Of a stretch of DNA of 64,000 bases, positions 1,603 to 56,522 are shown piece by piece. Location of the stretch: NCBI GenBank assembly GCA_944336335.1, contig CALVLC010000047.1:775-64774 (forward strand), read 5' to 3'. The DNA comes from an uncultured Bacilli bacterium (GTDB taxonomy: Bacteria; Bacillota_I; Bacilli_A; RFN20; CAG-826). The notes below the pieces were generated by a model. It saw nothing but the letters and a program-made list of their open reading frames with translations. It ran no database searches and was not told the DNA's origin. The position numbers were made by a program, and so were the translations under genes. The stretch's first letter is position 1, and every line of letters begins with the position of its first letter.

Positions 1603-3336
1603 ATGAAAAAAAGAAATTTTCTCACGGTTTTAATGCCACTCGTTTTAGTATTAGCAAGTTGTGGAACTACTCAAGCACAAATACCAAGTGAACCTCGAAC
1701 TATTGTTGATGTTCAAAAAATCGTAAACGATGATGGAAGTACGACTTATACTGTAACTTATTCGGATGAAACGGCTGAAACGTTTACTATTCAAGCAGAA
1801 CCAGTTGATGAAGGGCCGGTATTTGATAGTTCTAACAAAACAATTACTAGAGACGCTTTGAAAGACATTCAAGGCAGACTTGTTTTAGATGGTGCATTAA
1901 CTATTTTTGCAGGAGATGAAACGGCTAAAGGAAGTGACACTACAATTGATGTTACTTTTACAGAAGATGCTTGGTATTATTCTTCACTTGAAGATTTAGG
2001 TCAAGAAAACACCGGGAATATCTTTAAAATTGGTGATAAAGCAGTTATTGCTGGTATCAATTTATAAAATGAATTAGTTTTTTCTGAAATGACTGACGAT
2101 GAAGGAAATGTTCAAGATTTTGAAGAATATATTAATCCTTTTAAAGATTTAACAGTGTATGATTTTGAGGCTGTTGAAGGAGAAGAAGGCGTTTTCTCTT
2201 TGAGAATGGATTTACCATCAGTCGAAGAAAAGGCCATTGAAATTGTCTCAGGTCTTACTAATTATATATTTCCAGAACTTTCGAGCTTCGAAGTTGAAAC
2301 TGTAAATGGGCAAATTACAACAATTATGTTTGAGACGCCTAAATTTGAAACGTATTTCGGCTTCGAAAGGTACGTCGCTAATCTTGAAATTGTAGAAAGA
2401 GGTGCTGAAGTTGCGGATTTAAAATTTCCTGAGCCATTGCCAACTCTTGAAGGTCATGAAACTTTATTAGCAGCTCTTGAAGAAATTAATACCGAAAATT
2501 TAAAAGCCAAATATGTTCAAATTGATAAATATGATTCATCACAAACTTGGGAAGAAGCTGAAAGCAGTCTTGACTTCGATTGCTATTTCACAAAAGATAC
2601 ATTCTTACTAAAAGATAATCTTGATCCAAGATATACGGCTGGTGTAACTGTTATTGATGAACAAGCATACGAGATTGGATACGATGAAGCAAGTGGCAAT
2701 TACACTAGAGCTTTCTATCCTGTAACTGATGAAAATGGAAGTGAAATAACTGATTTAACAAATACAAGAGGTAATTTCTTAATTGCTGCACCAGAACATT
2801 TTTCTATAATTGACGATAAGCATTTTGAAATAACTGGTGTTTATGCAGGTACAGTTGCTTATTATTTTGACTTAGCTCAAAATGCATTTTCAGCATCAAT
2901 GACTAAAGTCAGTATTGAATTAGATGATAACAACAAGGTGAAAACTATTGAGTTCACTGATGAAATGTTCTCAAAAGTGACAATGACTTTTGAACAAATT
3001 GGTGGAACAGTTGAAATGCCATTTAATTTAGATGAATTAGTTGTTGAAGAAGATCCTTTCTTAGCATTAGTTCATACTTATAAATATACTGATGAAAGCG
3101 GAACTGAACATAATATTGTGGTTACAAGTCAAAGCGATATTAAAGTAGATGGAGTAGCAGCAACTAATATTTCATTTGATAAATTAGACACTATTACCTT
3201 TGAAGCTGGAGACCATACTTATGAAATAAGGTTTATGTCATATAGTAAATATTATACTTTGACTATAGAAGGGCCTGGCGATTTCTATGAATATTATTCA
3301 AGTGCTGCATACGATGGTAGTTTAACAGTAAAATAA
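1603..3336 (+). pseudogene. Surface lipoprotein gene interrupted by a single in-frame TAA (track ORFs 1603..2067 and 2089..3336)
   Basis: Both track ORFs are in the same frame. They are separated only by TAA at 2065-2067 plus 21 nt without a stop (GINL*NELVFSEMTDDEG). The first part has a signal peptide and lipobox (LVLASC|G). The second part has no signal peptide and no RBS. The joined length of about 577 aa matches the paralogues at 11850 and 13543. Confidence 0.6.
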
Positions 3337-3361: not shown

Positions 3362-3411
3362 TAAGTATTAATTTAGTAGATAATTAGTACCGAATAAGTA
3401 GATATTTAGTA
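3362..3411. repeat. Array A: five T(T/A)AGTA hexamers at exact 11-bp spacing (two copies of a 22-bp unit)
   Basis: Hexamers start at 3362 (TAAGTA), 3373, 3384 (TTAGTA), 3395 (TAAGTA) and 3406 (TTAGTA). The 22-bp units are TTAGTAGATAATTAGTACCGAA and TAAGTAGATATTTAGTACGTTT. The array lies between the convergent gene ends at 3336 and 3450. Confidence 0.7.
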
Positions 3412-3449
3412 CGTTTTTTGGATATTTAGATAGGGTTATTGAGGTCTGC

Positions 3450-4361
3450 TTAATTGTTAGCCTTAAAAATCCTATCTTTTAACATATATGTAAGTATAAC
3501 GTAAATAGCTAGCAAAACAATTGTAGATAATATTAAAACTATGTACATTAATTCAATACTTACATGACTATCGAAGAAGTATAGATTACAATCTAAGGAA
3601 TCTTTAATAGTGGTTAAAGCTGTTTCTGGGACATTGTATTTTGCAAGTTCATTTACTGCTCCATTTAGTGAGTGATTTCTGACTAATGATGTTCCATATG
3701 TTCCTGGAAGAAATAGGAAAATATTTTTTATGTTTGGATCAAATGATGATAAAGGCATATATGCTCCGCATATGAAACCATAACCTGCGCTAACTATAGT
3801 TCCAACAGCTGACATTTGACCTTGCGTAGTAAGAAATAAATTAATTATTGATGAAAGCGCTGTTCCAAAAAGTACTAATAAGAATATATCAACAATTAAA
3901 AGTAATGCATCTACTAAAGTGAAGTACCAACCTATAATAGCAAGATAAGCAAAAGAGATTATTAGTGCTGTATAACAAATTAATAAGGTAGCAACAAATG
4001 AGCCGAGATAATATGAAAAGGCAATTAGATAAGGTTTTTTAGGCGATATTAATATATCTTTTATTGTTTTATTTGACTTATCTTGAACCATTAAGAAGTT
4101 TGTACAAAAAGCTACAGTGACGCAAGATACAGCAAGAATTGATGAAACGAGTTGACCACCAACCAGAGAATCAAAGATTTTTGATGGTATATCAAGTCCA
4201 TCTGGTAGAGCATTCATAAAATTATCACGATAAATATTGCCTAAAAAAGTAGCATATAAAACCAATAAGATCATTGGTGTTATTAGTGAAGTTAAGAACA
4301 TTCCTTTATCATGAAAAAATAACTTAATATTTCTCTTTGTAAAAATTAAAAATGATTTCAT
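3450..4361 (-). CDS. ABC-2-type exporter permease
   Basis: 303-aa polytopic membrane protein with about 6 hydrophobic spans, lying 3 nt downstream of the ABC ATPase gene in the usual ATPase-permease ABC-2 arrangement. Confidence 0.8.
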   Translation of the reverse strand: MKSFLIFTKRNIKLFFHDKGMFLTSLITPMILLVLYATFLGNIYRDNFMNALPDGLDIPSKIFDSLVGGQLVSSILAVSCVTVAFCTNFLMVQDKSNKTIKDILISPKKPYLIAFSYYLGSFVATLLICYTALIISFAYLAIIGWYFTLVDALLLIVDIFLLVLFGTALSSIINLFLTTQGQMSAVGTIVSAGYGFICGAYMPLSSFDPNIKNIFLFLPGTYGTSLVRNHSLNGAVNELAKYNVPETALTTIKDSLDCNLYFFDSHVSIELMYIVLILSTIVLLAIYVILTYMLKDRIFKANN

Positions 4362-4364
4362 ATG

Positions 4365-5270
4365 TTACATCTCGGTTAGATTTTTTCCAGTTACATTTAA
4401 AAAAACATCATCCATATTCCCTTTACTGATTTCGTAGTCTTTAAAGATATCAGGATATTTAAGAATGAGTTTTGTTGCAATTTCGGTATTTTCTATTGAA
4501 ATAAGATAACCATTATTTGTTTTTTGATAAGGAATATTTAACTTTTTAACGTCTTCTTCACTTGTATTATATAAAGATATATAGTCATTTGCGAATTTTT
4601 CTTTGAGTTCTAAAGGAGTAGCACTTGCTACTATTTTTCCAGAGTCAATTATAATAACAAAGTCAGCATTACTAGCTTCTTCCATGTAATGTGTAGTTAG
4701 AAACACGGTCATATTTTGCTTTTTAATTAAGTCATCAATTACTGACCATATTAATTTTCTAGTTTTTGGATCTAAACCTGTTGTAGGTTCATCAAGAATT
4801 AAGATTTTAGGTTTATGTAGAAGTGCACGAGCAATATCAATTCGTCTTCTTTCTCCGCCTGATAATTTACCAACTTTTCTTTTTAATAGATTTTCAATAT
4901 GTAAAAGTTCATTTAGTTCGCTTAATCTATTTTTAAAATCTTTGCCAGTAATATCATAAAGTGCAGCACGGCTTTCTAAATTATCGTAAACATTTAAACC
5001 TTCATCCAGTAAAGAAGATTGAAAGACAACACCTAAATCTTTTTTGATAGAATCAATATTTTCTTCAATATTCATTCCATTAACTTCAACATAGCCATTG
5101 TCTTTCTTTAATTGGCCACAAATTATATTTATAGTGGTGGATTTACCTGCGCCATTAATACCTAAAAAAGCAAACAGTTCACCTTCTTTAACATTAAAAG
5201 AAATATCTTGAACTGCTTTTACTTCTCCAAAACTCTTTTCTAAATTTTTGATTACTATAACGTCTTTCAT
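4365..5270 (-). CDS. ABC transporter ATP-binding protein (ABC-2/DrrA-like exporter ATPase)
   Basis: Walker A GINGAGKST, signature LSGGERRR, Walker B ILILDEPTTGLD, and H-loop TTHYMEE. Confidence 0.92.
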   Translation of the reverse strand: MKDVIVIKNLEKSFGEVKAVQDISFNVKEGELFAFLGINGAGKSTTINIICGQLKKDNGYVEVNGMNIEENIDSIKKDLGVVFQSSLLDEGLNVYDNLESRAALYDITGKDFKNRLSELNELLHIENLLKRKVGKLSGGERRRIDIARALLHKPKILILDEPTTGLDPKTRKLIWSVIDDLIKKQNMTVFLTTHYMEEASNADFVIIIDSGKIVASATPLELKEKFANDYISLYNTSEEDVKKLNIPYQKTNNGYLISIENTEIATKLILKYPDIFKDYEISKGNMDDVFLNVTGKNLTEM

Positions 5271-5349
5271 AGTGTCATTTTATCAATCAAGTACTTTTTT
5301 AGTAAAGAACACCAATAAAAAATTTACATTTCGCCTTAAAAATTTACAT

Positions 5350-5389
5350 TTAGTAGATAGTTAGTAGTTTTTTAGCATATAAATTAGTA
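5350..5389. repeat. Array B: phased TTAGTA hexamers in the divergent control region between the ABC-2 exporter and the lipoprotein island
   Basis: Hexamers at 5350 and 5361 (TTAGTA), 5372 (TTAGCA) and 5384 (TTAGTA), spaced 11, 11 and 12 bp. The 22-bp unit TTAGTAGATAGTTAGTAGTTTT matches the array A units at about 18/22. It is preceded by a duplicated AAAAATTTACATTT (5317-5331 and 5337-5351). Confidence 0.6.
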
Positions 5390-5485: not shown

Positions 5486-8425
5486 ATGAGAGGAAAGAAA
5501 AATTTATTAGTCCTCGGTGCACTTGCTTGTGGACTTTTAGTAACTTCATGTGGTGAACAAGTAACTGTTGATGAACCTGTGTATCATAAGTTAATAGTTG
5601 AAGCCGATAGTGGAGTTGAAAGTGTTTCTATTAAAGATGGTGATACAGTAGTTAGTGACCTTACTCGTATTGAAGAAGGAACTGAACTTACAGCTGTCAT
5701 TGATTTAAAAGAAGACTTTGAAATTAGTGCTGTAACTTTAGATGGCAGTGCTGTTAGCGCAACAGGCGGTAGCTATGTTTTTGATATGCCAACTAAAGAT
5801 GCAACATTTAAAGTTACAACAAAAAGTGTTGCTACTGAGGAAGCAACGATTACTGTTACAAATGATGATACCAAAGGAACATATACTTTAGCTGTTGGTG
5901 GTACAGCTGTTAGTGATGGTAAAGTTAGCGTTGGCGATACAGTTAAGCTAACAGTAACACCAAATAGTGGATTTGCAGTTTCTACAGTAACATTAGATGG
6001 AACAGCAGTTACTTTAACTGAGGGTGCTTATGAATTTACAGTCACTAAAACAACTCACGCTATTGTCATTGAATATGTCGAAACAACAGTAAATGTTTCT
6101 TTATCTGTCTATAATGAACCAACAACTGGTTTTTATACTGGATATCAACTTTTAAGTGGAGAAGAAGATATTACTGAAGGCGGGGAAGTTGAAGTTGGAA
6201 GTGATTTAAAGGTTGTACTTAAAGCTGAAAACGATTATAACAATTTTGTTGAGGACGAATATAGAAGTACAAGAGATAAAGTCTATCTTCATGTTGGAGA
6301 TAAAATCTATCATGGGGATGATGAATGTGCGGAACTTTCAGAAGATTTTAAAACTTTAACTTTTACAGTTCCTGCTCCAGAAGCTGATGCTGAATTAGTT
6401 GTTGCATATAACTCAAATAGAGCAAAAAAAGATAGCACAACAGGAGTCATTGTTAAGTTTGCTGAAAATGAAAACTTAGAAGTTTTCGGTTATAGTGAAA
6501 CTGATAAATACGAGTCATATAGATTCACAGCCGTATTAAAGAGAAAACCTGGCTACACCATAACAAAAGTTGTTTTAAACTATGAAGATGGAACATCTGC
6601 TGAATTAACTGAATCTTATATGCTCCCATCATTTTCAAATGATATAAGCAAGAATTGGGGAATTGATGGTAGTTATATAAAGGATAATATGACTATTTCT
6701 TTTGAAGGCGAAGTTAAAGAAGTTTTCAAAATCAGTTATATAAATGGTGATAATGTAAAAGCTGATGTTGCATTTGATTCTAATAAAGTTCCAGGCGAGA
6801 TGGTTAATGTCTATAACATTAGATCTAGCGATTCTACTAAATCAATTTCCGAGATTAAATTTACAGGTGTTGAATGTACGGCTACTTATAGTTCTTACAG
6901 CGATACTTGGTCTTATAATTTCACAATGCCTGAAAACGAAGTCACAATCGAATTTGTTTTTGAAGATTTGCTTGAATTAAGCTATACAGCTAATGAAAAT
7001 TTAGAGAGTGTTGTATTTAGATCTTCAAGTAACATTTATGATAATAGCAATATAATCACTCATGCTAAGGCAGGTGCTACTGTTTATGCATTTGCAAGAC
7101 CAAAAGATGGTTTCTTACTTGGTAGTGCAACTGATAATGCTGGTAATACTTATCAACCACGTCATGACTATGGAGAAAGTTCTTATTATCAAGTTACAGT
7201 TCCTGAAGATGGATTAGTATTAACAATCAGTTGTGATGTTGGGTATTCTGTAACTGTTGATAGCACATCAACATCACAGGTTTCAACAAATTTATCTAGT
7301 GGCGATTTAGCAGTTCCAGGTTCAACTTTTAATTTCAGTTATAGACCAACTTCTTCTTTATATATTGTTAAAGAAGTTTATTTAACTAATACTGACGGAG
7401 AAAGAGTCGACGTTGCAATTACACCTACATCAACTAGTGGAACAACAACTTATTGTTCATTCACAATGCCAGCATATGATGTTGTTATTCATTATACAGT
7501 TGAACAAGCTGCAACCTTTAAGACTGCTGTTAATGTTTCAGTGCCTCAAGGAACTACGCTTGGTGAAGTTATGACTAATTTCATGCTAAGAAATTCTGAT
7601 AGCGGTGTAAATCTTTATAGCTACACTGAAGGATTGACTGTTGATTTAGTTGAAGGAACATCAACATCATTGTCCGTTCAAGTAGCTCATGGTTACGAAG
7701 TAAGTGCCTCCTTTACGTATACAAAAGATGGAAGCGATGTCACAGAGGAAATTAAGACTTCTTCTGTTTCTGGTGGTTATTATAGTTTTACTTCGTTCAT
7801 GGTTCCTGCAAACATTAAATCTATTGATATTGTAATCACAAAAGCAACTCCAGTTGGAGTAACAATTACTCATGATGCTACTGTTACTGATGAAGAATTT
7901 GGTGCACTAGAATTTGAATATACAGTAAATAATAAAGGAGCAGAAAATCTTAATTCAGTATATAAATACGATACTATCGGTGTTGTGGTTTCTACCGAAG
8001 CTGAAAATGGATATGTTTATCTTGTTGAAGTGACTGATAGTAAAGGTAATCCTTTAGAAACTAGAGGCGAAAACCAATATTACGTTACTGGTGATTTCAC
8101 TATTACTGTTACCAAGACTCAAGCATATAGTTTTAGTGTTGTTTATAGTCCGGATCTTTATATTTCGGCAAATTTATCATTATCTAATGGCGAAACTTTA
8201 TATTCAGATGAGTTAATTTTTGGAAACGGATTAACCGGTTTTGTTAGAGTTTCTTATTCATCAGTATCTGTTGATTATGTTGTTACAGTTGGTGGCGAAG
8301 AAGTTGATACTGGCTCAATCTTGTATGATCCTGCAAACTATGGTGCGGTTGGTCAAACAAATAGTTTTGAAATCACAGGAGATGTCGTAGTTACATTTAC
8401 AGCTCACGTTGATGAAGCTCAATAG
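5486..8425 (+). CDS. Large surface lipoprotein built from tandem InlB-B-repeat-like beta-sandwich modules
   Basis: Signal peptide plus lipobox (LLVTSC|G) and RBS AAGAAGGGA. The protein contains many ~80-90-aa modules with a recurring pattern, e.g. ISAVTLDGSAVSATGGSYVFDMPTKDATFKV, VSTVTLDGTAVTLTEGAYEFTVTKTTHAIVIEY and KFTGVECTATYSSYSDTWSYNFTMPENEVTIEFVF. Confidence 0.85.
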   Translation: MRGKKNLLVLGALACGLLVTSCGEQVTVDEPVYHKLIVEADSGVESVSIKDGDTVVSDLTRIEEGTELTAVIDLKEDFEISAVTLDGSAVSATGGSYVFDMPTKDATFKVTTKSVATEEATITVTNDDTKGTYTLAVGGTAVSDGKVSVGDTVKLTVTPNSGFAVSTVTLDGTAVTLTEGAYEFTVTKTTHAIVIEYVETTVNVSLSVYNEPTTGFYTGYQLLSGEEDITEGGEVEVGSDLKVVLKAENDYNNFVEDEYRSTRDKVYLHVGDKIYHGDDECAELSEDFKTLTFTVPAPEADAELVVAYNSNRAKKDSTTGVIVKFAENENLEVFGYSETDKYESYRFTAVLKRKPGYTITKVVLNYEDGTSAELTESYMLPSFSNDISKNWGIDGSYIKDNMTISFEGEVKEVFKISYINGDNVKADVAFDSNKVPGEMVNVYNIRSSDSTKSISEIKFTGVECTATYSSYSDTWSYNFTMPENEVTIEFVFEDLLELSYTANENLESVVFRSSSNIYDNSNIITHAKAGATVYAFARPKDGFLLGSATDNAGNTYQPRHDYGESSYYQVTVPEDGLVLTISCDVGYSVTVDSTSTSQVSTNLSSGDLAVPGSTFNFSYRPTSSLYIVKEVYLTNTDGERVDVAITPTSTSGTTTYCSFTMPAYDVVIHYTVEQAATFKTAVNVSVPQGTTLGEVMTNFMLRNSDSGVNLYSYTEGLTVDLVEGTSTSLSVQVAHGYEVSASFTYTKDGSDVTEEIKTSSVSGGYYSFTSFMVPANIKSIDIVITKATPVGVTITHDATVTDEEFGALEFEYTVNNKGAENLNSVYKYDTIGVVVSTEAENGYVYLVEVTDSKGNPLETRGENQYYVTGDFTITVTKTQAYSFSVVYSPDLYISANLSLSNGETLYSDELIFGNGLTGFVRVSYSSVSVDYVVTVGGEEVDTGSILYDPANYGAVGQTNSFEITGDVVVTFTAHVDEAQ

Positions 8426-34415: not shown

Positions 34416-34686
34416 TTATTCTGAAGTTTGAGGTGAATTATTTGAAGCTGAATTTACTTGCGGTAAAGAATTAGGCTTATCTTCAAGAATTTTATCGTCT
34501 AGCAAATAATCAATAGAGCAGTCAAATGTTTGACTTATTCTAATTACTTTTCAGTTTCTGGATAAGAAATGTTGCTCTTCCATTTTGAAAAAGGACTGAC
34601 GAGAAACTTTTAATAAACTCGCAAGTTAATCCTGAGCTAAATTATTTTCTTTTCTTAGTTTTGCAATTTTATCTCCGGTTTTCATT
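34416..34686 (-). pseudogene. Decayed XRE-family HTH regulator gene
   Basis: The minus strand reads MKTGDKIAKLRKENNLAQD*LASLLKVSRQS..., with an in-frame TAA at 34629-34627. A +1 shift in the T5 run (plus-strand 34588-34592) and a -1 shift in the A run (plus-strand 34548-51) are needed to recover SFSKWKSNISYPETEKVIRISQTFDCSIDYLLDD. RBS AAGGAGAAAACC is present. Confidence 0.65.
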
Positions 34687-34792
34687 TTGGTTTTCTCCTT
34701 CAAACTTTGTTTAAATTGCAGTTCTTTTCTTGCTTTACATACAAGTTAGTTCAAGGTTAGTTTTGTAAATTTTTGGTTGTGTTATATTAATA

Positions 34793-34840
34793 TTAGTTGC
34801 TTTTTAGTGAAAATTTAGTGTTACTAGTAGATTTCTAGTA
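34793..34840. repeat. Array C: phased (T/C)TAGT(A/G/T) hexamers
   Basis: Hexamers at 34793 (TTAGTT), 34804 and 34815 (TTAGTG), 34824 and 34835 (CTAGTA), spaced 11, 11, 9 and 11 bp. The 22-bp unit CTAGTAGATTTCTAGTAGAAAA matches array B at about 17/22. Two more TTAGTT copies sit 11 bp apart at 34746 and 34757. Confidence 0.55.
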
Positions 34841-34851
34841 GAAAAATATAT

Positions 34852-34880
34852 TAAAAAAATCGCTCCCGATAAAGGAAGCG
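34852..34880 (-). terminator. Terminator of the ferritin gene
   Basis: On the minus strand: CGCTTCC-TTTATC-GGGAGCG (7-bp stem with one G.U pair) followed by ATTTTTTT. Confidence 0.55.
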
Positions 34881-34896
34881 ATTTCGTTAGTTTTAA

Positions 34897-35388
34897 TTAC
34901 TTTCTTCTTGCACCAAGCTTTTCACTTAACTCAAATACACCTTTAGTGTCAATTGCAAAGAGTTCAAATTCTTTAAGAAGATCTTGAGCAGTTTTTTCTT
35001 CTTCAGCTTGTTCAGTTATGAACCAATTTAAGAAATTGACTGAACGATAATCTTTTGCTTCAATAGCAGCAGCATAGATGTCATTAATTAATGAAGTAAC
35101 ATATTTCTCGTGATTAAGTTGAAGAACAAGTGGGTCTTTAAAAGTTTTAAAAGCTGCTTTATAGACATCAATTGTTTCTAAAGTTACTTTTTCATCATTG
35201 TCATGGAGATATTCCATGAATTTTTCAGCGTGTTCGCTTTCCTCTTCGGCTTGCTTTTTAAACCACGATGCAAAGCCATTTAATCCTTCTTCGGCGTAGT
35301 AATTCGAAATTACTAAATATAAATAAGACGAATACAATTCTTTGTTAATTTGATTAACCATTAATTTTGATACTTTTTTATCTAACAT
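34897..35388 (-). CDS. ftn: Non-haem ferritin
   Basis: 163 aa with ferroxidase-centre ligand pattern (ELYSSYLYL, EEESEHAEKFMEYL, LNHEKYV, EQAEEE). RBS AAAGGAGAT. Confidence 0.9.
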   Translation of the reverse strand: MLDKKVSKLMVNQINKELYSSYLYLVISNYYAEEGLNGFASWFKKQAEEESEHAEKFMEYLHDNDEKVTLETIDVYKAAFKTFKDPLVLQLNHEKYVTSLINDIYAAAIEAKDYRSVNFLNWFITEQAEEEKTAQDLLKEFELFAIDTKGVFELSEKLGARRK

Positions 35389-47556: not shown

Positions 47557-48315
47557 CTAATCGTCATCTTTGAAAAAGGACAGCTTATCTTTAGTTCTAT
47601 AAGAAGGCCCAACGATCGAGAAAATCTTGGAATGATGAAGCAAACGATCCAAAATTGCGTTTGCAAGAACTGTATCGCCAAAGACTTCTCCCCATTTATT
47701 AAAGCTTTTGTTAGTAGTAATAATTGTAGGATGTTTTTCGTAGCGTTTACTTATTAGCTGGAAAAATAAATTTGAATCTTCCCTTGAAATTGGAAGAAAG
47801 CCAACTTCATCGATGATTAAGACACTATATGAAGTAAAGTGTTTTAATCTTCGTGCAAGCGTATTTTCCATCTGTGCTTTTTTAAGCTGAGAAATTAAGT
47901 CATTGGCTGTAATAAAATAAGTTTGAAGTCTATTTTTAGCTGATTCTATTCCTATAGCGGTTGCTAAATGAGTTTTACCAACACCAGAAGTCCCCACAAA
48001 AATAATATTTTCGTTTTTTTCAACGAAACGTAAATTTTTAAGGTCTAAAATTTCTTCTTTGTTTAATTGAGGTTGAAAGTTAAAGTCAAAGTCTTCGAAA
48101 GTTTTTATAAAAGGAAAATGAGCAGTTTTGATCATTGATTTATCAACTCTTTCTTGTCTAAATTCAAGTTCTCTTTCGCTCATCGAATACAAAGAATCAA
48201 GAAAATTTAATTCACCAGAATTTACCTTGTCAATATAATAATCTAGATTTTGTGAAAATGTAAAAAGTCCAATGGAGTCGAGATTATTTTTAAGTTTATT
48301 GTAATTATTGATCAT
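47557..48315 (-). CDS. istB: IS21-family helper ATPase IstB
   Basis: Walker A VGTSGVGKTHLA, Walker B LIIDEVGFLP, 252 aa, positioned downstream of and overlapping istA. Confidence 0.9.
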   Translation of the reverse strand: MINNYNKLKNNLDSIGLFTFSQNLDYYIDKVNSGELNFLDSLYSMSERELEFRQERVDKSMIKTAHFPFIKTFEDFDFNFQPQLNKEEILDLKNLRFVEKNENIIFVGTSGVGKTHLATAIGIESAKNRLQTYFITANDLISQLKKAQMENTLARRLKHFTSYSVLIIDEVGFLPISREDSNLFFQLISKRYEKHPTIITTNKSFNKWGEVFGDTVLANAILDRLLHHSKIFSIVGPSYRTKDKLSFFKDDD

Positions 48316-49535
48316 ATATATTTAAACCTTTCTAGTGCTTCAGATGAATATTTTTCTACATCTTCATCGCTCAATCCCTTATCTTTCAAAAACTTGCTGT
48401 AATGTTCTGGAAGATAATTTATTTTTTGCTTCGAAACCTTATGTGTGGCTATTAAAACAGTGTTATAGAAAATGGATACTTTTTCATCGTCACCGATGAT
48501 TTTGACGTGTTTTCCAATAAATCTGCTATCAACACTGTACTGTCTTCCTTTATAATTAATTAAACCGGTTTGAGGAACTTTTGACGAGAAAGCGTAGTTT
48601 GTTTGTAGTGTTTCGTAGTCTAACTCACTTAACTCAGTTAAAAGTTCTTTTTCATTTTTAAAAAACATACAAGGAGGAACTCCCAATAGCTGATTAGCAT
48701 ATTTTGTATTAATTGTTGTATTTAATCGATAAATTATTCTAAATAGGTCTAATTCATCTTTGACTTTATTGTTATACGAGTAAAGCCGTTTAACAAATTT
48801 ATTTGAAGTTTCACACTTTCCTTTTGTTTGAGGTGTGAATGGATTACACAGTTTTAATTCTACCCCTAAATCTTTAAAAAACTGTGCAATTTCTTGGTGA
48901 ATTATTCTATTTCCTTTTTCATCAATATGGACAACTGCCGGCATGTTATCAGTTAATACTTTCTTTGTTTTGCCGCCAAAATATTTGAAAGTATGGAGCA
49001 AACATCTCATAAAGTCTTCGTTTGTACGGCTTATGGAATATTCGAAGTAATGCATTCTTGAATATCCTAAGGTTGCAGAGAATAAATTGAATGTAATAAT
49101 CTCACCCAAAATTGTGTTTAAGCTTATGCTTTCAACCCAGTCAACTTGCAATTGTTCTCCAGGCTCAGTTTCGTATCTAAAATGAGCTATATGATTCTTT
49201 TCTTTAACATTTAAATTATTTCTTTGTACAAATTTTAGAAAATTTGAGTAAGTACAAGTAATTTGTTTTTCTTCTCTTTGCTCGTCAGTGAAGTAGAAGA
49301 AAGCGGACGCAACGCCAATAGCTGGATCCTTAAGCACATCCCTAATTTCTTCTTTCAAATCGTCCAGTTGGGATTTTCTTTGGCGAGGTTTAAAATCTCT
49401 TTTTTCATGATACATATCAGACAGAGTATGTCTATTAATGTTTGTTTCACGTGACAGTGCTGTAAAATTCGGCTTCACATTAATCTCCTTACAAATTGCT
49501 ATTTTGCGCATAGCTAGCGCATAATCTTTCTTCAT
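48312..49535 (-). CDS. istA: IS21-family transposase IstA
   Basis: N-terminal HTH followed by a DDE-type integrase core (QVDWVE..., VLTDNMPAVV..., KGKCE). I prefer the ATG at 49535 (AAAGGA 7 nt upstream) over the track TTG at 49556. Confidence 0.85.
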   Translation of the reverse strand: MKKDYALAMRKIAICKEINVKPNFTALSRETNINRHTLSDMYHEKRDFKPRQRKSQLDDLKEEIRDVLKDPAIGVASAFFYFTDEQREEKQITCTYSNFLKFVQRNNLNVKEKNHIAHFRYETEPGEQLQVDWVESISLNTILGEIITFNLFSATLGYSRMHYFEYSISRTNEDFMRCLLHTFKYFGGKTKKVLTDNMPAVVHIDEKGNRIIHQEIAQFFKDLGVELKLCNPFTPQTKGKCETSNKFVKRLYSYNNKVKDELDLFRIIYRLNTTINTKYANQLLGVPPCMFFKNEKELLTELSELDYETLQTNYAFSSKVPQTGLINYKGRQYSVDSRFIGKHVKIIGDDEKVSIFYNTVLIATHKVSKQKINYLPEHYSKFLKDKGLSDEDVEKYSSEALERFKYI

Positions 49536-49715
49536 AATTAATTCCTTTCTAAACAAAGAATAATTATGAAATAAATAATCAGTATCGGCTATTTTAAATT
49601 CCGATTTATGGCTAAGATTATTTTCCTATTTTCAATAGAGAATCAATTCTCCTTTTTATAGAGTGACTATATCTTTACGTTTCAGTATATTTAAAGCATA
49701 AAACATGGAGTTCTT

Positions 49716-54032: not shown

Positions 54033-54710
54033 ATGAATGGTTTTTTAATTTACTCGATAGAAGATGATCATGAAATATCTGATTTAATAAGGTTAGCATT
54101 AGAAAAAAGTGGGTTTGAGGTTCGCTGTTTTGATGATGGTGAAGATTTTTTAAAAAAATTTGAAATCAAAAAGCCAAATCTCATCCTTTTAGATTTAATG
54201 CTTCCTGGAATACAGGGCAACGAAATTTTAAAAGAAGTTAGAAAAGACACAAAAAACGATAAAATTCCTATCATTATTTTGAGTGCAAAATCATTACTTG
54301 AAGATCGTATAATTGGCTTAAATAATGGTGCTGATGATTATGTGATAAAGCCTTTTAATATAAAAGAATTAATAAGTAGAATTAACGTTCATTATCGTAA
54401 ATTTTTAAAAGATCAATTTATTATCAAGGATAGAGAATATACATTAGATTATAAAAATGAAGTATTTTATAAATATGATGAGAAAATTAATTTAACTTCG
54501 AATGAGTACAAAATTATTAAATATTTATTATTAAAACAAGGGAACATTGTTTCTAGAGATGAACTTTATAACGAAATCTGGGGAACCAATAACAAAAATA
54601 ATTCTAGAAGTGTAGACATGCATATAAAATCGATCAGATCAAAAATCGGCGATGAAAATAAGAATTTTATTAAATCTATCTATGGTGGTGGATACATTAT
54701 TGAAAAATGA
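54033..54710 (+). CDS. OmpR/PhoB-family response regulator
   Basis: Receiver domain with acidic pocket IEDD, phospho-acceptor LILLDLMLPG and SAKS..K. The C-terminal winged helix is LTSNEYKIIKYLLLKQGNIVSRDELYNEIWG...SRSVDMHIKSIRSKI. Confidence 0.9.
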   Translation: MNGFLIYSIEDDHEISDLIRLALEKSGFEVRCFDDGEDFLKKFEIKKPNLILLDLMLPGIQGNEILKEVRKDTKNDKIPIIILSAKSLLEDRIIGLNNGADDYVIKPFNIKELISRINVHYRKFLKDQFIIKDREYTLDYKNEVFYKYDEKINLTSNEYKIIKYLLLKQGNIVSRDELYNEIWGTNNKNNSRSVDMHIKSIRSKIGDENKNFIKSIYGGGYIIEK

Positions 54711-56362
54711 ATCGATTTAAAAGAACTTTAACTATATTTTTATTTACAATTAGTTTTATTTTAATAGCATTAATTGGACTTTTGGTGCCTTTTTATCAAA
54801 CGAAAGCATCATATGAAACTGAATTAAATAATTTTTCTCTTGACATAAACAATAATTTAACTAATGATAATTTTGAAGAAATTTTATCTATTTATGGAAA
54901 TGATTCTAGAACTGATATCGTAATTTTTAATAAGAGTGGAAACATAATAGATTCAACCAGTGATTTTACGTTTGAATCAAACTATTTATTTAAACTGAAA
55001 AACGAACTTGATATAGTTAAAAACTTTAATGTTTACGATAAAAGTGGAATCGCAATTTGCACTTATAATTCAAATATTTCTTCATATGTTTTATGCGTTG
55101 TTTATTACGAGTCATTTTATTTTATGTTTAAAGTCTTTGTGATTGTTGTTCCGATTGTTTTAGCGATTTTAGGCGCTTTTTGTGTACTTTTTGAATATTT
55201 TAAATCGAAAAAGGAAGCAACCTATTTAAAATATCAAGTCAGAAAATTACGTAATATTGTAAACATATCAACTATGGTTGAATATGATAACGATATTGAA
55301 AATTTGGCTAATATTTTAAAAGACACAAGAAGAGAACTAGATAGACAACTTAAAAACAATTTTTTAAGTGAAAAGAAACTAAATTTTATTTTAGACTCTA
55401 TTGAACAAGGTATTATTGTTGTTTCTCTTGAAGGGGCAATAATTTTATCTAATAAAAAAGGTAGAGACATTCTTCATCTTGATAAAAACGATAAGAAAAT
55501 GGTTGAAAATGCATTAGTTCACGATGTTTTAGTTAATGTTAAAGTAGCATCGTCTTTAAATAGATCGCTCCTTTTTAATAAAGAAATAGAAGGTAAAATC
55601 TATGAGTTTAATATCAACAATATTGACGATTCATTTAACGAGAATTCGAATATTAAAAGTGTTTCTATTTTAATTGTTGATATTACTGAAAAATTTAATA
55701 GCGAAAAAATGAAAAGAGATTTTTTTGCAAACGCCGCTCACGAATTAAAATCACCATTGACCACGATTTTATGTTATCAAGAATTAATTAAAGATGGCGT
55801 TTTAACAAGCAACGAAGAGATAAAAACTGCAAACGAAAAAACAATTAAGGAAAGTGAAAGAATGAATAAATTGATTATGGAAATGCTTGAACTTTCTTCG
55901 CTTGAGAACAATAACTTAAGGCCAATTGAAAAGGTTGACGTTTGTAATGAACTTGATCACATTTTATCGATGCTTGAAGAGCAGATAAAAGTAAAGAATA
56001 TTAAAGTTGTTAGAAATTATCAAAAATTGATTTTAAAAATAAACAATGAAGATTTTTATAATTTATTCAAAAACTTAATTGAAAATGCAATTAGATATAA
56101 TAAGGTAAATGGTGAAATCAGAATTAATATAGACACTAAAAATAAAACAATCTCAATCGCTGATGATGGAATTGGAATAAGTGATGAAAATAAATCTAGA
56201 ATATTTGAGAGATTTTATCGAGTTGACAAAGCTAGAAGTAGAGAAAACGGTGGAACCGGACTTGGTCTCTCTATTGTTAAATATATTTGTAACTATTACG
56301 ACTACAAAATCGAGGTTAAGAGTAGTTTAGGCAATGGTGCTGAATTTACAATTTATTATTAA
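54707..56362 (+). CDS. Sensor histidine kinase (two TM spans, PAS-like domain, HisKA, HATPase_c)
   Basis: H-box FFANAAHELKSPLT, N-box NLIENAIRYN, G-boxes DDGIGI and GGTGLGLSIV. ATGA overlap with the response-regulator gene. Confidence 0.9.
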   Translation: MNRFKRTLTIFLFTISFILIALIGLLVPFYQTKASYETELNNFSLDINNNLTNDNFEEILSIYGNDSRTDIVIFNKSGNIIDSTSDFTFESNYLFKLKNELDIVKNFNVYDKSGIAICTYNSNISSYVLCVVYYESFYFMFKVFVIVVPIVLAILGAFCVLFEYFKSKKEATYLKYQVRKLRNIVNISTMVEYDNDIENLANILKDTRRELDRQLKNNFLSEKKLNFILDSIEQGIIVVSLEGAIILSNKKGRDILHLDKNDKKMVENALVHDVLVNVKVASSLNRSLLFNKEIEGKIYEFNINNIDDSFNENSNIKSVSILIVDITEKFNSEKMKRDFFANAAHELKSPLTTILCYQELIKDGVLTSNEEIKTANEKTIKESERMNKLIMEMLELSSLENNNLRPIEKVDVCNELDHILSMLEEQIKVKNIKVVRNYQKLILKINNEDFYNLFKNLIENAIRYNKVNGEIRINIDTKNKTISIADDGIGISDENKSRIFERFYRVDKARSRENGGTGLGLSIVKYICNYYDYKIEVKSSLGNGAEFTIYY

Positions 56363-56522
56363 TTTCTTTACAATTTGATAATTTAAAAAAGTACGATATT
56401 TATCGATAAAACTAGTAATTTTTCTTAATTCTAAATTTTAATTGTAAATTTTTTTGCTTGAATTGTAAGCGCTTACATATATAATTAAGGTATCTAAAAA
56501 ACTTTTTGTAGGAGGATTTATA

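Follow-up and report, generated by a model that had tools for sequence, protein, structure and literature searches.

Phased TAGTA arrays in an uncultured Bacilli genome and its relatives cluster around dif and may be docking platforms for an inactive Fic/winged-helix protein

Introduction

What kind of protein, if any, reads a row of near-identical pentamers set one helical turn apart between the genes of a bacterial chromosome? The question is raised by a stretch of 64,000 nucleotides from an uncultured Bacilli bacterium of the CAG-826 lineage (assembly GCA_944336335.1), hereafter the window, in which three intergenic regions carry arrays of the pentamer TAGTA repeated at about 11 bp. A first-pass annotation, made from the letters of the window, described these arrays and proposed that they are operators of an OmpR-type response regulator encoded in the same window. 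The window is positions 775-64774 of contig C47 in a 1.996-Mb assembly (169 contigs, 32% GC) that we call G000; G-numbers (G002 to G057 and the like) denote the genomes of relatives, f1 the host family and f7 and f8 two sister families.

We compared the arrays across the assembly and across related genomes. In relatives the arrays gather around dif, the chromosome dimer resolution site, one of them stands at a nearly fixed distance from it, and the range of the arrays matches that of a protein with an inactive Fic core and a C-terminal winged helix-turn-helix domain (the Fic/wHTH protein). The reading we favour, with moderate confidence and from sequence comparison, is that the arrays are docking platforms for one DNA-binding protein, most likely the Fic/wHTH protein, that marks or organises the terminus and its dif site. 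To our knowledge, dedicated terminus systems have been described in few bacteria, namely MatP/matS in enterobacteria and the replication fork traps of Escherichia coli and Bacillus subtilis; a literature search found no description of a system joining TAGTA arrays to dif.

Results

Phased TAGTA arrays in the window and across the assembly

All three arrays read on the forward strand. Array A (3362-3411) has five (T/A)AGTA units, the pentamers of which start at 3363, 3374, 3385, 3396 and 3407, an exact 11-bp period. Array B (5350-5389) reads TAGTA, TAGTA, TAGCA and TAGTA from 5351, 5362, 5373 and 5385, with spacings of 11, 11 and 12 bp, and array C (34793-34840) has TAGTT at 34794, TAGTG at 34805 and 34816 and TAGTA at 34825 and 34836, with spacings of 11, 11, 9 and 11 bp. 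When the pentamer starts were re-read, every position and spacing given by the first-pass annotation matched. The exact pair TAGTA-N6-TAGTA has only three matches in the window, and these are arrays A, B and C.

The arrays had also been said to hold more order than AT-richness would give, and the whole assembly bears this out. TAGTA-N6-TAGTA occurs 57 times in G000 as against 5-9 times for each of the spacings N4, N5, N7 and N8, while TAGTAGAT-N3-TAGTA occurs 24 times where base composition predicts about 0.3. The repeated unit can be written yTAGTAGWTWW. Another TAGTA follows or precedes a pair at 11 bp in 50-75% of cases, so that a typical site has three to five units. When the 30 permutations of the pentamer were compared, none but TAGTA and its register-shifted read-outs proved abundant at 11-bp spacing, a control that also supports the clustering described below. 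Enrichment between genes had been named as a check on the motif, and 39 of the 57 pairs do fall in the 11.6% of the DNA that lies outside long open reading frames (ORFs). Altogether G000 has about 45 array loci, nearly all of them outside ORFs.

Arrays cluster around dif and the replication terminus

Forty-one relatives, 24 of them from the same genus, were scanned for the array, with the reversed motif as a control for the three-unit pattern. That pattern is present in 22 of the 24 same-genus genomes, where the reversed control gives 0-1 matches, and is sparse in the other families of the order. Nearly all pairs of G055, G017, G013 and G010 lie on one contig per genome, and the array-rich stretch of that contig straddles the maximum of the cumulative GC skew, which is the point at which gene orientations converge. 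Exactly at the skew switch of these four genomes is a dif-like site that differs from B. subtilis dif at four to six positions. Of 60 genus genomes scanned, 56 have one copy of the dif pattern, and its control gave no matches.

Three-unit arrays are mostly on the dif contig in at least 12 genomes, concentrated within about 60-100 kb of dif. For G055, G017, G013 and G010 together, 44 array loci lie within 60 kb of dif and 16 in the rest of the contigs, a density of 15.8 versus 3.3 loci per 10 kb of non-ORF DNA (P=6e-9). We rejected more abundant or more AT-rich intergenic DNA near dif as the cause of this clustering, since non-ORF DNA makes up 5.8% of the sequence near dif versus 9.0% elsewhere and the GC content is equal.

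Clustering is also seen in G000 itself. Synteny joins the end of contig C6 to the start of C49, 4.5 kb before dif; together the two contigs, 6.7% of the assembly, carry 18 of the 45 array loci (P=2e-10). The chromosomal dif of G000 is at C49:4549-4576 (ACTTCGTATAATATCTATTATGTAAATT), where gene orientations converge. On one side of it are yqeG-yqeH-yhbY-yqeK and, 3-5 kb off, parC/parE; on the other are an ABC permease gene, deoB and a gene for a Xer recombinase, of which a second paralogue is encoded on C62. At 2.0 Mb G000 is larger than the genomes of its relatives (0.8-1.7 Mb) and has more arrays as well; a chimeric bin of two strains as the source of the assembly was considered and rejected.

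Array placement does not resemble a regulon

Where the arrays stand relative to genes bears on the proposal made for them in the first-pass annotation, that they are operators of an OmpR/PhoB-type regulator. In its specific form, the regulator encoded at 54033-54710 would bind them and control the neighbouring transporter and lipoprotein genes. Direct repeats of a pentamer with N6 between them are the classic architecture of OmpR/PhoB sites, the gene at 54033 is genuine, with Response_reg and Trans_reg_C domains in its product, and at least one OmpR-type regulator was found in every genome searched. Array B moreover does lie, as described, in the divergent control region between the ABC (ATP-binding cassette) exporter genes and the lipoprotein gene. 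Set against this are the 31 intergenic loci of G000, which follow no orientation rule: nine stand between convergent and six between divergent genes, and of those with co-directional neighbours nine are sense and seven antisense. Convergent regions thus hold 29% of the array loci, yet they are 12-13% of the intergenic background. The picture of a regulator and its operons is further contradicted by the relatives, where arrays are confined to the dif region. Among 40 genus genomes searched, orthologues of the window regulator with at least 60% identity were found in only about four, and the array-rich G010, G017, G002 and G008 gave matches of no more than 36%. The "degenerate phased set" reported at 56389-56417 proved to be a single TAGTA with a small palindrome and not an array. 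Given this phyletic mismatch of the window regulator we strongly disfavour the OmpR-type explanation and consider it scarcely credible. What survives of the original proposal is its architecture, winged-helix domains docked at one-helical-turn phasing; the regulator at 54033 as the binder does not.

Three other functions for arrays so placed were examined and rejected. An insulator acting through stop codons in all frames does not fit, as the arrays take no fixed direction relative to the gene upstream (24 versus 17). An RNA-level function was set aside because the arrays occur on either strand relative to transcription and an Rfam search gave no match. DNA uptake signals (uptake signal sequences and DNA uptake sequences) are expected at very high copy number, on both strands and within genes as well as between them. 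The arrays differ from that class in having about 45 copies, lying nearly all outside ORFs and being restricted to the terminus in relatives.

Pentamers and phase are kept at orthologous sites

The first-pass annotation had also named conservation in related genomes as a check. G057, the closest relative (85% identical), retains arrays A and B. The first two units of array A are perfectly conserved there although the surrounding spacer is only 71% identical, and array B is conserved save for an 8-bp deletion that removes its first unit; conservation of array C was not found in the relatives. Outside the window, an array upstream of deoC is common to G000 and two other genus genomes, and five species with DinB N-termini 62-73% identical share an array in the xseB-dinB interval, its three pentamers and their 11-bp phase kept while the spacers diverge. 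By sequence comparison, then, pentamers and phase are under purifying selection at orthologous sites, which speaks against the suggestion that such arrays are relics of a small repeat element.

A fixed module beside dif

An array lies about 100-125 bp from the TTATGT arm of dif, pointing to dif, in every genome inspected. The composite pattern of dif arm-N95-125-TACTA-N6-TACTA was found in 26 of 40 family genomes, representing 13 of the 16 genera sampled, and in one of six genomes of one sister family. Among about 350 genomes from the remaining families of the class it turned up in three, as often as its reversed control. Within the host family the array sits on the TTATGT-arm (XerD-type) side of dif and not on the XerC side; in two sister families dif has an array to one side of it or to both, and the distances differ a little from those of the host family.

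Five genomes (G013, G017, G010, G036 and G033) have a DnaA-box-like TTATCCACA in the interval from dif to the array, and DnaA boxes occur within 80 bp of 5 of 105 array loci versus 0.44 expected. Perfect or near-perfect boxes (TTATCCACA or TTTTCCACA) are 20-40 bp from the dif-adjacent array, and another such box is near position 49324 of C6 in G000.

The dif-adjacent array of G000 abuts the 3' end of a 185-aa gene (C49:4725-5282, minus strand) that is single-copy and always beside dif. Genes of this kind, 160-185 aa in length, are in 20 of 24 genus genomes, with one weak match in another family, and form 34 representative clusters among 1.8 billion proteins. Their products have no Pfam match and a predicted MazF/Kid-like fold with extra N- and C-terminal helices. 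We rejected this protein as the binder, since no copy was found in the sister families that retain the dif array.

Polarity of the arrays

The arrays could be polar terminus elements, either fork barriers forming a trap around dif or sites that would orient or load a DNA translocase toward dif. TAGTA is on the leading strand, that is toward dif, in 37 pairs of G000 as against 19 on the other strand. By our own tally the three-unit loci of 13 genomes divide 43:17 in the same sense, about 70% overall (43 of 60). All 17 pairs of G055 point toward dif, as do all arrays seen within about 300 bp of dif, which are inward on both sides in G036, G030 and G026. Fork traps have two known independent origins (PMC13220808).

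This polarity of about 70:30 equals, however, the skew of the isolated hexamer TAGTAG (325:164, or 66:34), which ranks 344th of 3650 hexamers by skew, and the arrays of G013 are split between four toward dif and four away. As TAGTAG is itself equally skewed, we claim no polarity of the arrays beyond composition except for those next to dif, and the inward orientation of the latter represents one or two evolutionary events only. The words most skewed to the leading strand on the terminus contigs of G055, G017, G013 and G010 are not TAGTAG but GAAGAAG (537:84), which is skewed in other Firmicutes too, and related purine-rich 7- and 8-mers. From their skew, these are the likely words that orient FtsK/SpoIIIE in this group.

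The gamma domain of FtsK is present in these bacteria, but its recognition helix is unconserved within the genus while the TAGTA motif is constant, and FtsK gamma was therefore rejected as the reader. Helices such as GFPRAGK, GYTRSMK and GFNKAGK (for example at G000:C50:7085-7276) diverge from the canonical GYNRAAR. In nine genus genomes with both located, some 55-78 kb separate the FtsK gene from dif. On balance we regard polar terminus elements as a rather improbable account of the arrays.

An inactive Fic/winged-helix protein as candidate binder

The candidate binder of G000 is a 527-aa protein encoded downstream of lepA (C6:20288-21871), with homologues of 450-550 aa across the lineage. 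Its match to the Pfam Fic family, at 21.1 bits, falls just under the cut-off of 24; a profile search of the PDB returned only Fic proteins (4rgl, E=1.4e-4), and all top Foldseek matches of its predicted model are Fic proteins, including the winged-helix-bearing Fic protein of Shewanella (PDB 3eqx/3zcn). The model itself has winged helices in addition to the Fic core. In place of the catalytic motif of Fic proteins, HPFx[D/E]GN[G/K]R (PMC2686095), 25 of 25 aligned homologues have [KR]PFExYSEE, and by this sequence criterion the Fic core is judged inactive. A variable acidic linker, predicted to be disordered, follows the core and leads to a C-terminal domain of about 95 aa with the order helix-helix-helix-wing. 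This domain is near-invariant (CAYETAR...LGYY...K.KF.Y.PVK) in a protein that is otherwise 25-45% identical, and the invariance of its recognition region parallels that of TAGTA. None of the 207 homologue clusters carries a name beyond "hypothetical".

Across a class-wide sample of 399 genomes (40 of f1, 6 of f7, 3 of f8 and about 350 others) the protein was found in 40 of 40 genomes of the host family, 6 of 6 of f7 and none of 3 of f8, with one partial match among the rest. Presence of the protein and presence of arrays agree in most of the 41 relatives; for example, G039 has neither, and G026, G033, G028, G035, G030 and G036 have both. Wherever gene and dif could both be located they are 16-55 kb apart.

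The gene also carries the motif in its own promoter. Of 20 genomes from 12 host-family genera, 18 have a pair TAGTA-N6-TAGT(A) 55-75 nt upstream of the start codon, ending a few bases before a recognisable -35/-10 promoter, and so do four genomes of f7 and several further genus genomes. Judged from sequence, such a pair is the signature expected of an autoregulatory DNA-binding protein, and for fusions of Fic with a helix-turn-helix (HTH) domain it has been proposed that the HTH controls expression of the fic gene to which it is joined (PMC2686095).

A different terminus protein may instead bind the arrays, the gene for the Fic/wHTH protein being a conserved target and no more. A promoter array does prove only that a gene is a target, the DnaA-box-like TTATCCACA beside the dif arrays of the five genomes listed above suggests other partners, and some genomes have the protein and no three-unit array. 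The known winged-helix and terminus proteins are, however, not at hand for this role. RTP (PF02334) was not found, its best score being 16.7 bits where the cut-off is 26.7; Tus (PF05472) gave no match; MatP (PF06303) was not found in five genomes; and the Rok winged-helix domain, at 12.9 bits against a cut-off of 27.6, was not found. A listing of small ORFs on the contigs that flank dif yielded no other candidate. MraZ, FtsK gamma and the MazF-fold dif neighbour all fit worse, and among the candidates examined the Fic/wHTH protein is the only one whose range matches that of the arrays; indeed it is the only feature found of which this is true. A different binder accordingly seems unlikely to us, though less so than the other alternatives considered here.

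MraZ was rejected as the reader of TAGTA because mraZ has AAGTGG boxes of its own. The mraZ promoter of G000 (C49, about 55995-56030, minus strand) has three AAGTGG at a 10-bp period just before the start codon, which are classic MraZ boxes.

A second dispersed word near some arrays

G000 contains a second dispersed word, (AAAATAGTTGAGA)TTTGCA[AG]GGTTTTTG, in about 80-100 copies, 40% of them inside ORFs (for example at C29:19684 and C48:21175), and in nine cases a copy stands at N8 or N21 from an array; the window has only a weak look-alike near 34757. The arrays could be the phased tail of this "uptake-signal-like" word of 30 bases, or else a decaying small mobile repeat. About 14 of 38 G000 arrays do lie beside TTTGCA[AG]GGTTTTT, in the fixed configurations N8 and N21, T-rich tracts occur at 11-bp intervals downstream of the word, and word and arrays alike are in excess between convergent genes. 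The majority of arrays, however, lack a nearby word, and most words lack an array. In the relatives, copies of the word are about 3-fold depleted in the array-dense stretch within 60 kb of dif, so word and arrays are separable. Arrays kept at orthologous sites with their pentamers under selection, and recurring in the promoter of one particular gene across 18 of 20 genomes, are likewise hard to reconcile with a tail or a decaying repeat. We think this origin very improbable.

Setting of the window arrays

Array A lies between the convergent 3' ends of an ORF at 2089-3336 (plus strand) and an ABC-2 permease gene at 3450-4361 (minus strand). Array B stands in the divergent region between an ABC ATPase gene (4365-5270, minus strand) and the lipoprotein gene (5486-8425, plus strand), and is directly preceded by a promoter-like TTTACA-16-TACATT at 5323-5350. 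Array C has the terminator of a ferritin gene on one side and a broken XRE-type HTH gene on the other and is antisense to both. Its position and that of array A at gene ends are as first described. Scans for sigma-70 promoters and terminators at the three arrays gave no excess over shuffled sequence.

The intrinsic terminator of the ferritin gene (34856-34885, minus strand), a 12-pair stem followed by a T run, adjoins array C and is no part of it; the Ferritin domain was detected in the product of the gene itself (34897-35388, minus strand). The XRE-type gene (34416-34703, minus strand), just downstream of array C, has two in-frame stops (MKTGDKIAKLRKENNLAQD*LASLLKVSRQ...SRN*KVIRIS...) and is probably a pseudogene.

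Core genes of the window, such as thiI, are off the dif contig in relatives. Contig C47 showed no synteny with the dif contigs of relatives, its sole link being a contig-end overlap with C24: the left ends of the two share about 118 bases, which may reflect adjacency in the assembly or a shared repeat. Ends of other contigs overlap as well, with about 224 bases in common for the left ends of C1 and C12 and for the right ends of C29 and C8. Several arrays of G000 flank accessory genes largely missing from relatives, namely nrdAB and groEL. These loci (C12:24585-28243 and C29:14343-15962) are each flanked by several arrays; among five relatives searched, a class I nrdAB matching that of G000 was found in none and groEL in one.

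A pair of genes at 47557-49556 (minus strand) encodes proteins of 414 and 252 aa, the second a weak match to DnaA/IstB-type ATPases, and the first has several copies in relatives, some of them broken. The pair looks like an insertion sequence of the IS21 type and not like replication genes.

Discussion

From the placement of the arrays we infer how the Fic/wHTH protein might bind them, in what number and to what end in the cell. Each TAGTA pentamer would take one winged-helix domain, and the 11-bp period would set successive domains on one face of the helix, with two to five copies of the protein side by side. The protein would control its own gene through the TAGTA pair that abuts the -35 box. 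Its other sites would centre on the terminus, with one array 95-125 bp from dif, often by a DnaA box, and, in the genus, 15-30 further arrays within about 100 kb of dif. Since the sites centre on the replication terminus, the system would most likely mark or organise the terminus and dif region and not serve an ordinary regulon; dimer resolution, termination and local compaction are possible roles there. Within the window, protein bound to array B, just 3' of the promoter-like site, could block transcription.

Several observations weigh against this account. The majority of G000 loci (27 of 45, including the three of the window) are on contigs, among them C29, C12, C47 and C24, that are not syntenic with the terminus contigs of relatives; as this holds for the window contig, the terminus reading rests on other loci and not on arrays A, B and C. 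The intergenic location of the arrays is little informative, because three TTAGTAG units 11 bp apart create stops in all frames of both strands and so cannot sit inside genes. About one-third of the G000 arrays stand at N8 or N21 from TTTGCA[AG]GGTTTTT, a link that the proposed mechanism leaves unexplained. G027, G034 and G040, all from the sister families, have the protein and no three-unit array, while G025 has a single array match and no protein was found in it. As related genomes are not independent, the agreement between protein and arrays is weaker than the counts suggest. Finally, the array in its promoter makes the Fic/wHTH gene a target of the system and does not make its product the binder.

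A wider reading would see here a third, independently evolved terminus system, in which a pseudo-enzyme coats phased TAGTA arrays that flank dif and are scattered through the terminus domain and, together with an adjacent DnaA box, controls termination, resolution of sister chromosomes or compaction in a family of small-genome gut Bacilli in which MatP, Tus and RTP were not found. We put this forward tentatively and think it the less likely outcome. Should the Fic/wHTH protein be the binder, the Fic enzyme fold would have been recruited as the scaffold of a DNA-binding protein. The comparison in either case offers a concrete pair, an 11-bp-phased pentamer array and a lineage-specific dead-Fic winged-helix protein with a fixed module at dif, in a widespread family of uncultured bacteria from the human and animal gut. 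It also carries a warning for annotation, in that such arrays are not to be read as response-regulator operators.

Among known systems, matS/MatP offers a parallel: many copies of a short site are confined to the 10-20% of the chromosome nearest the terminus, and one dedicated protein binds them. matS is a single 13-bp palindrome, whereas here two to five direct pentamer repeats at 11 bp form an array, one array is fixed beside dif, and the candidate is an inactive Fic/winged-helix protein, the MatP domain not having been found in the five genomes searched for it. Restriction to the terminus of the kind seen for matS is found in the relatives and is partial in G000. MatP acts as a sequence-specific unloader of MukBEF in the terminus (PMC8669397).

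RTP-Ter and Tus-Ter share with the arrays the presence of multiple protein-binding sites around dif and of a binder gene nearby, which here is that of the candidate. The core of the B. subtilis Ter site also contains TACTAA. Ter sites are, however, single asymmetric sites of 23-32 bp in two strictly opposed groups, while the arrays have an overall polarity of about 70:30, no more than the skew of their hexamer, and neither RTP nor Tus was found. Ter sites occupy a zone around dif that makes up about 10% of the chromosome, and the gene of their binder lies near the terminus as well (PMC13220808).

The accessory sequences of plasmid Xer recombination, cer with ArgR/PepA and psi with ArcA/PepA, consist of protein-binding DNA at a fixed short distance from a Xer core, and here an array lies 95-125 bp from dif. 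They differ in that the site here is a chromosomal dif with FtsK, and in that the TAGTA motif is present at many other terminus-proximal loci as well. FtsK-orienting polar sequences and SpoIIIE recognition sequences (KOPS/SRS) are unlike the arrays, as TAGTAG is not strongly skewed and the FtsK gamma helix is variable within the genus.

The winged helix of Rok prefers TACTA/AACTA, the complement of TAGTA (PMC6212790), and a further likeness is that the arrays sometimes adjoin DnaA boxes. Rok differs in targeting loose AT-rich regions that are neither rigidly phased nor terminus-specific, and its domain was not found here. OmpR/PhoB boxes such as the pho box and the WalR site resemble the arrays in architecture, a short half-site recurring in direct orientation once per helical turn and being read by winged-helix domains, yet the arrays are not placed as in a regulon, are restricted to the terminus in relatives and are not co-distributed with the window regulator. 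The Fic protein of Shewanella oneidensis (PDB 3eqx/3zcn) shares with the candidate a Fic core and a C-terminal winged helix; what sets the candidate apart from other Fic-wHTH proteins is its [KR]PFExYSEE motif, its long acidic linker and its tie to phased sites around dif. In kind, the arrays would fit a terminus-specific system of sites and protein, yet one that departs from each of matS/MatP, RTP/Tus and the Xer accessory sequences in some defining features.

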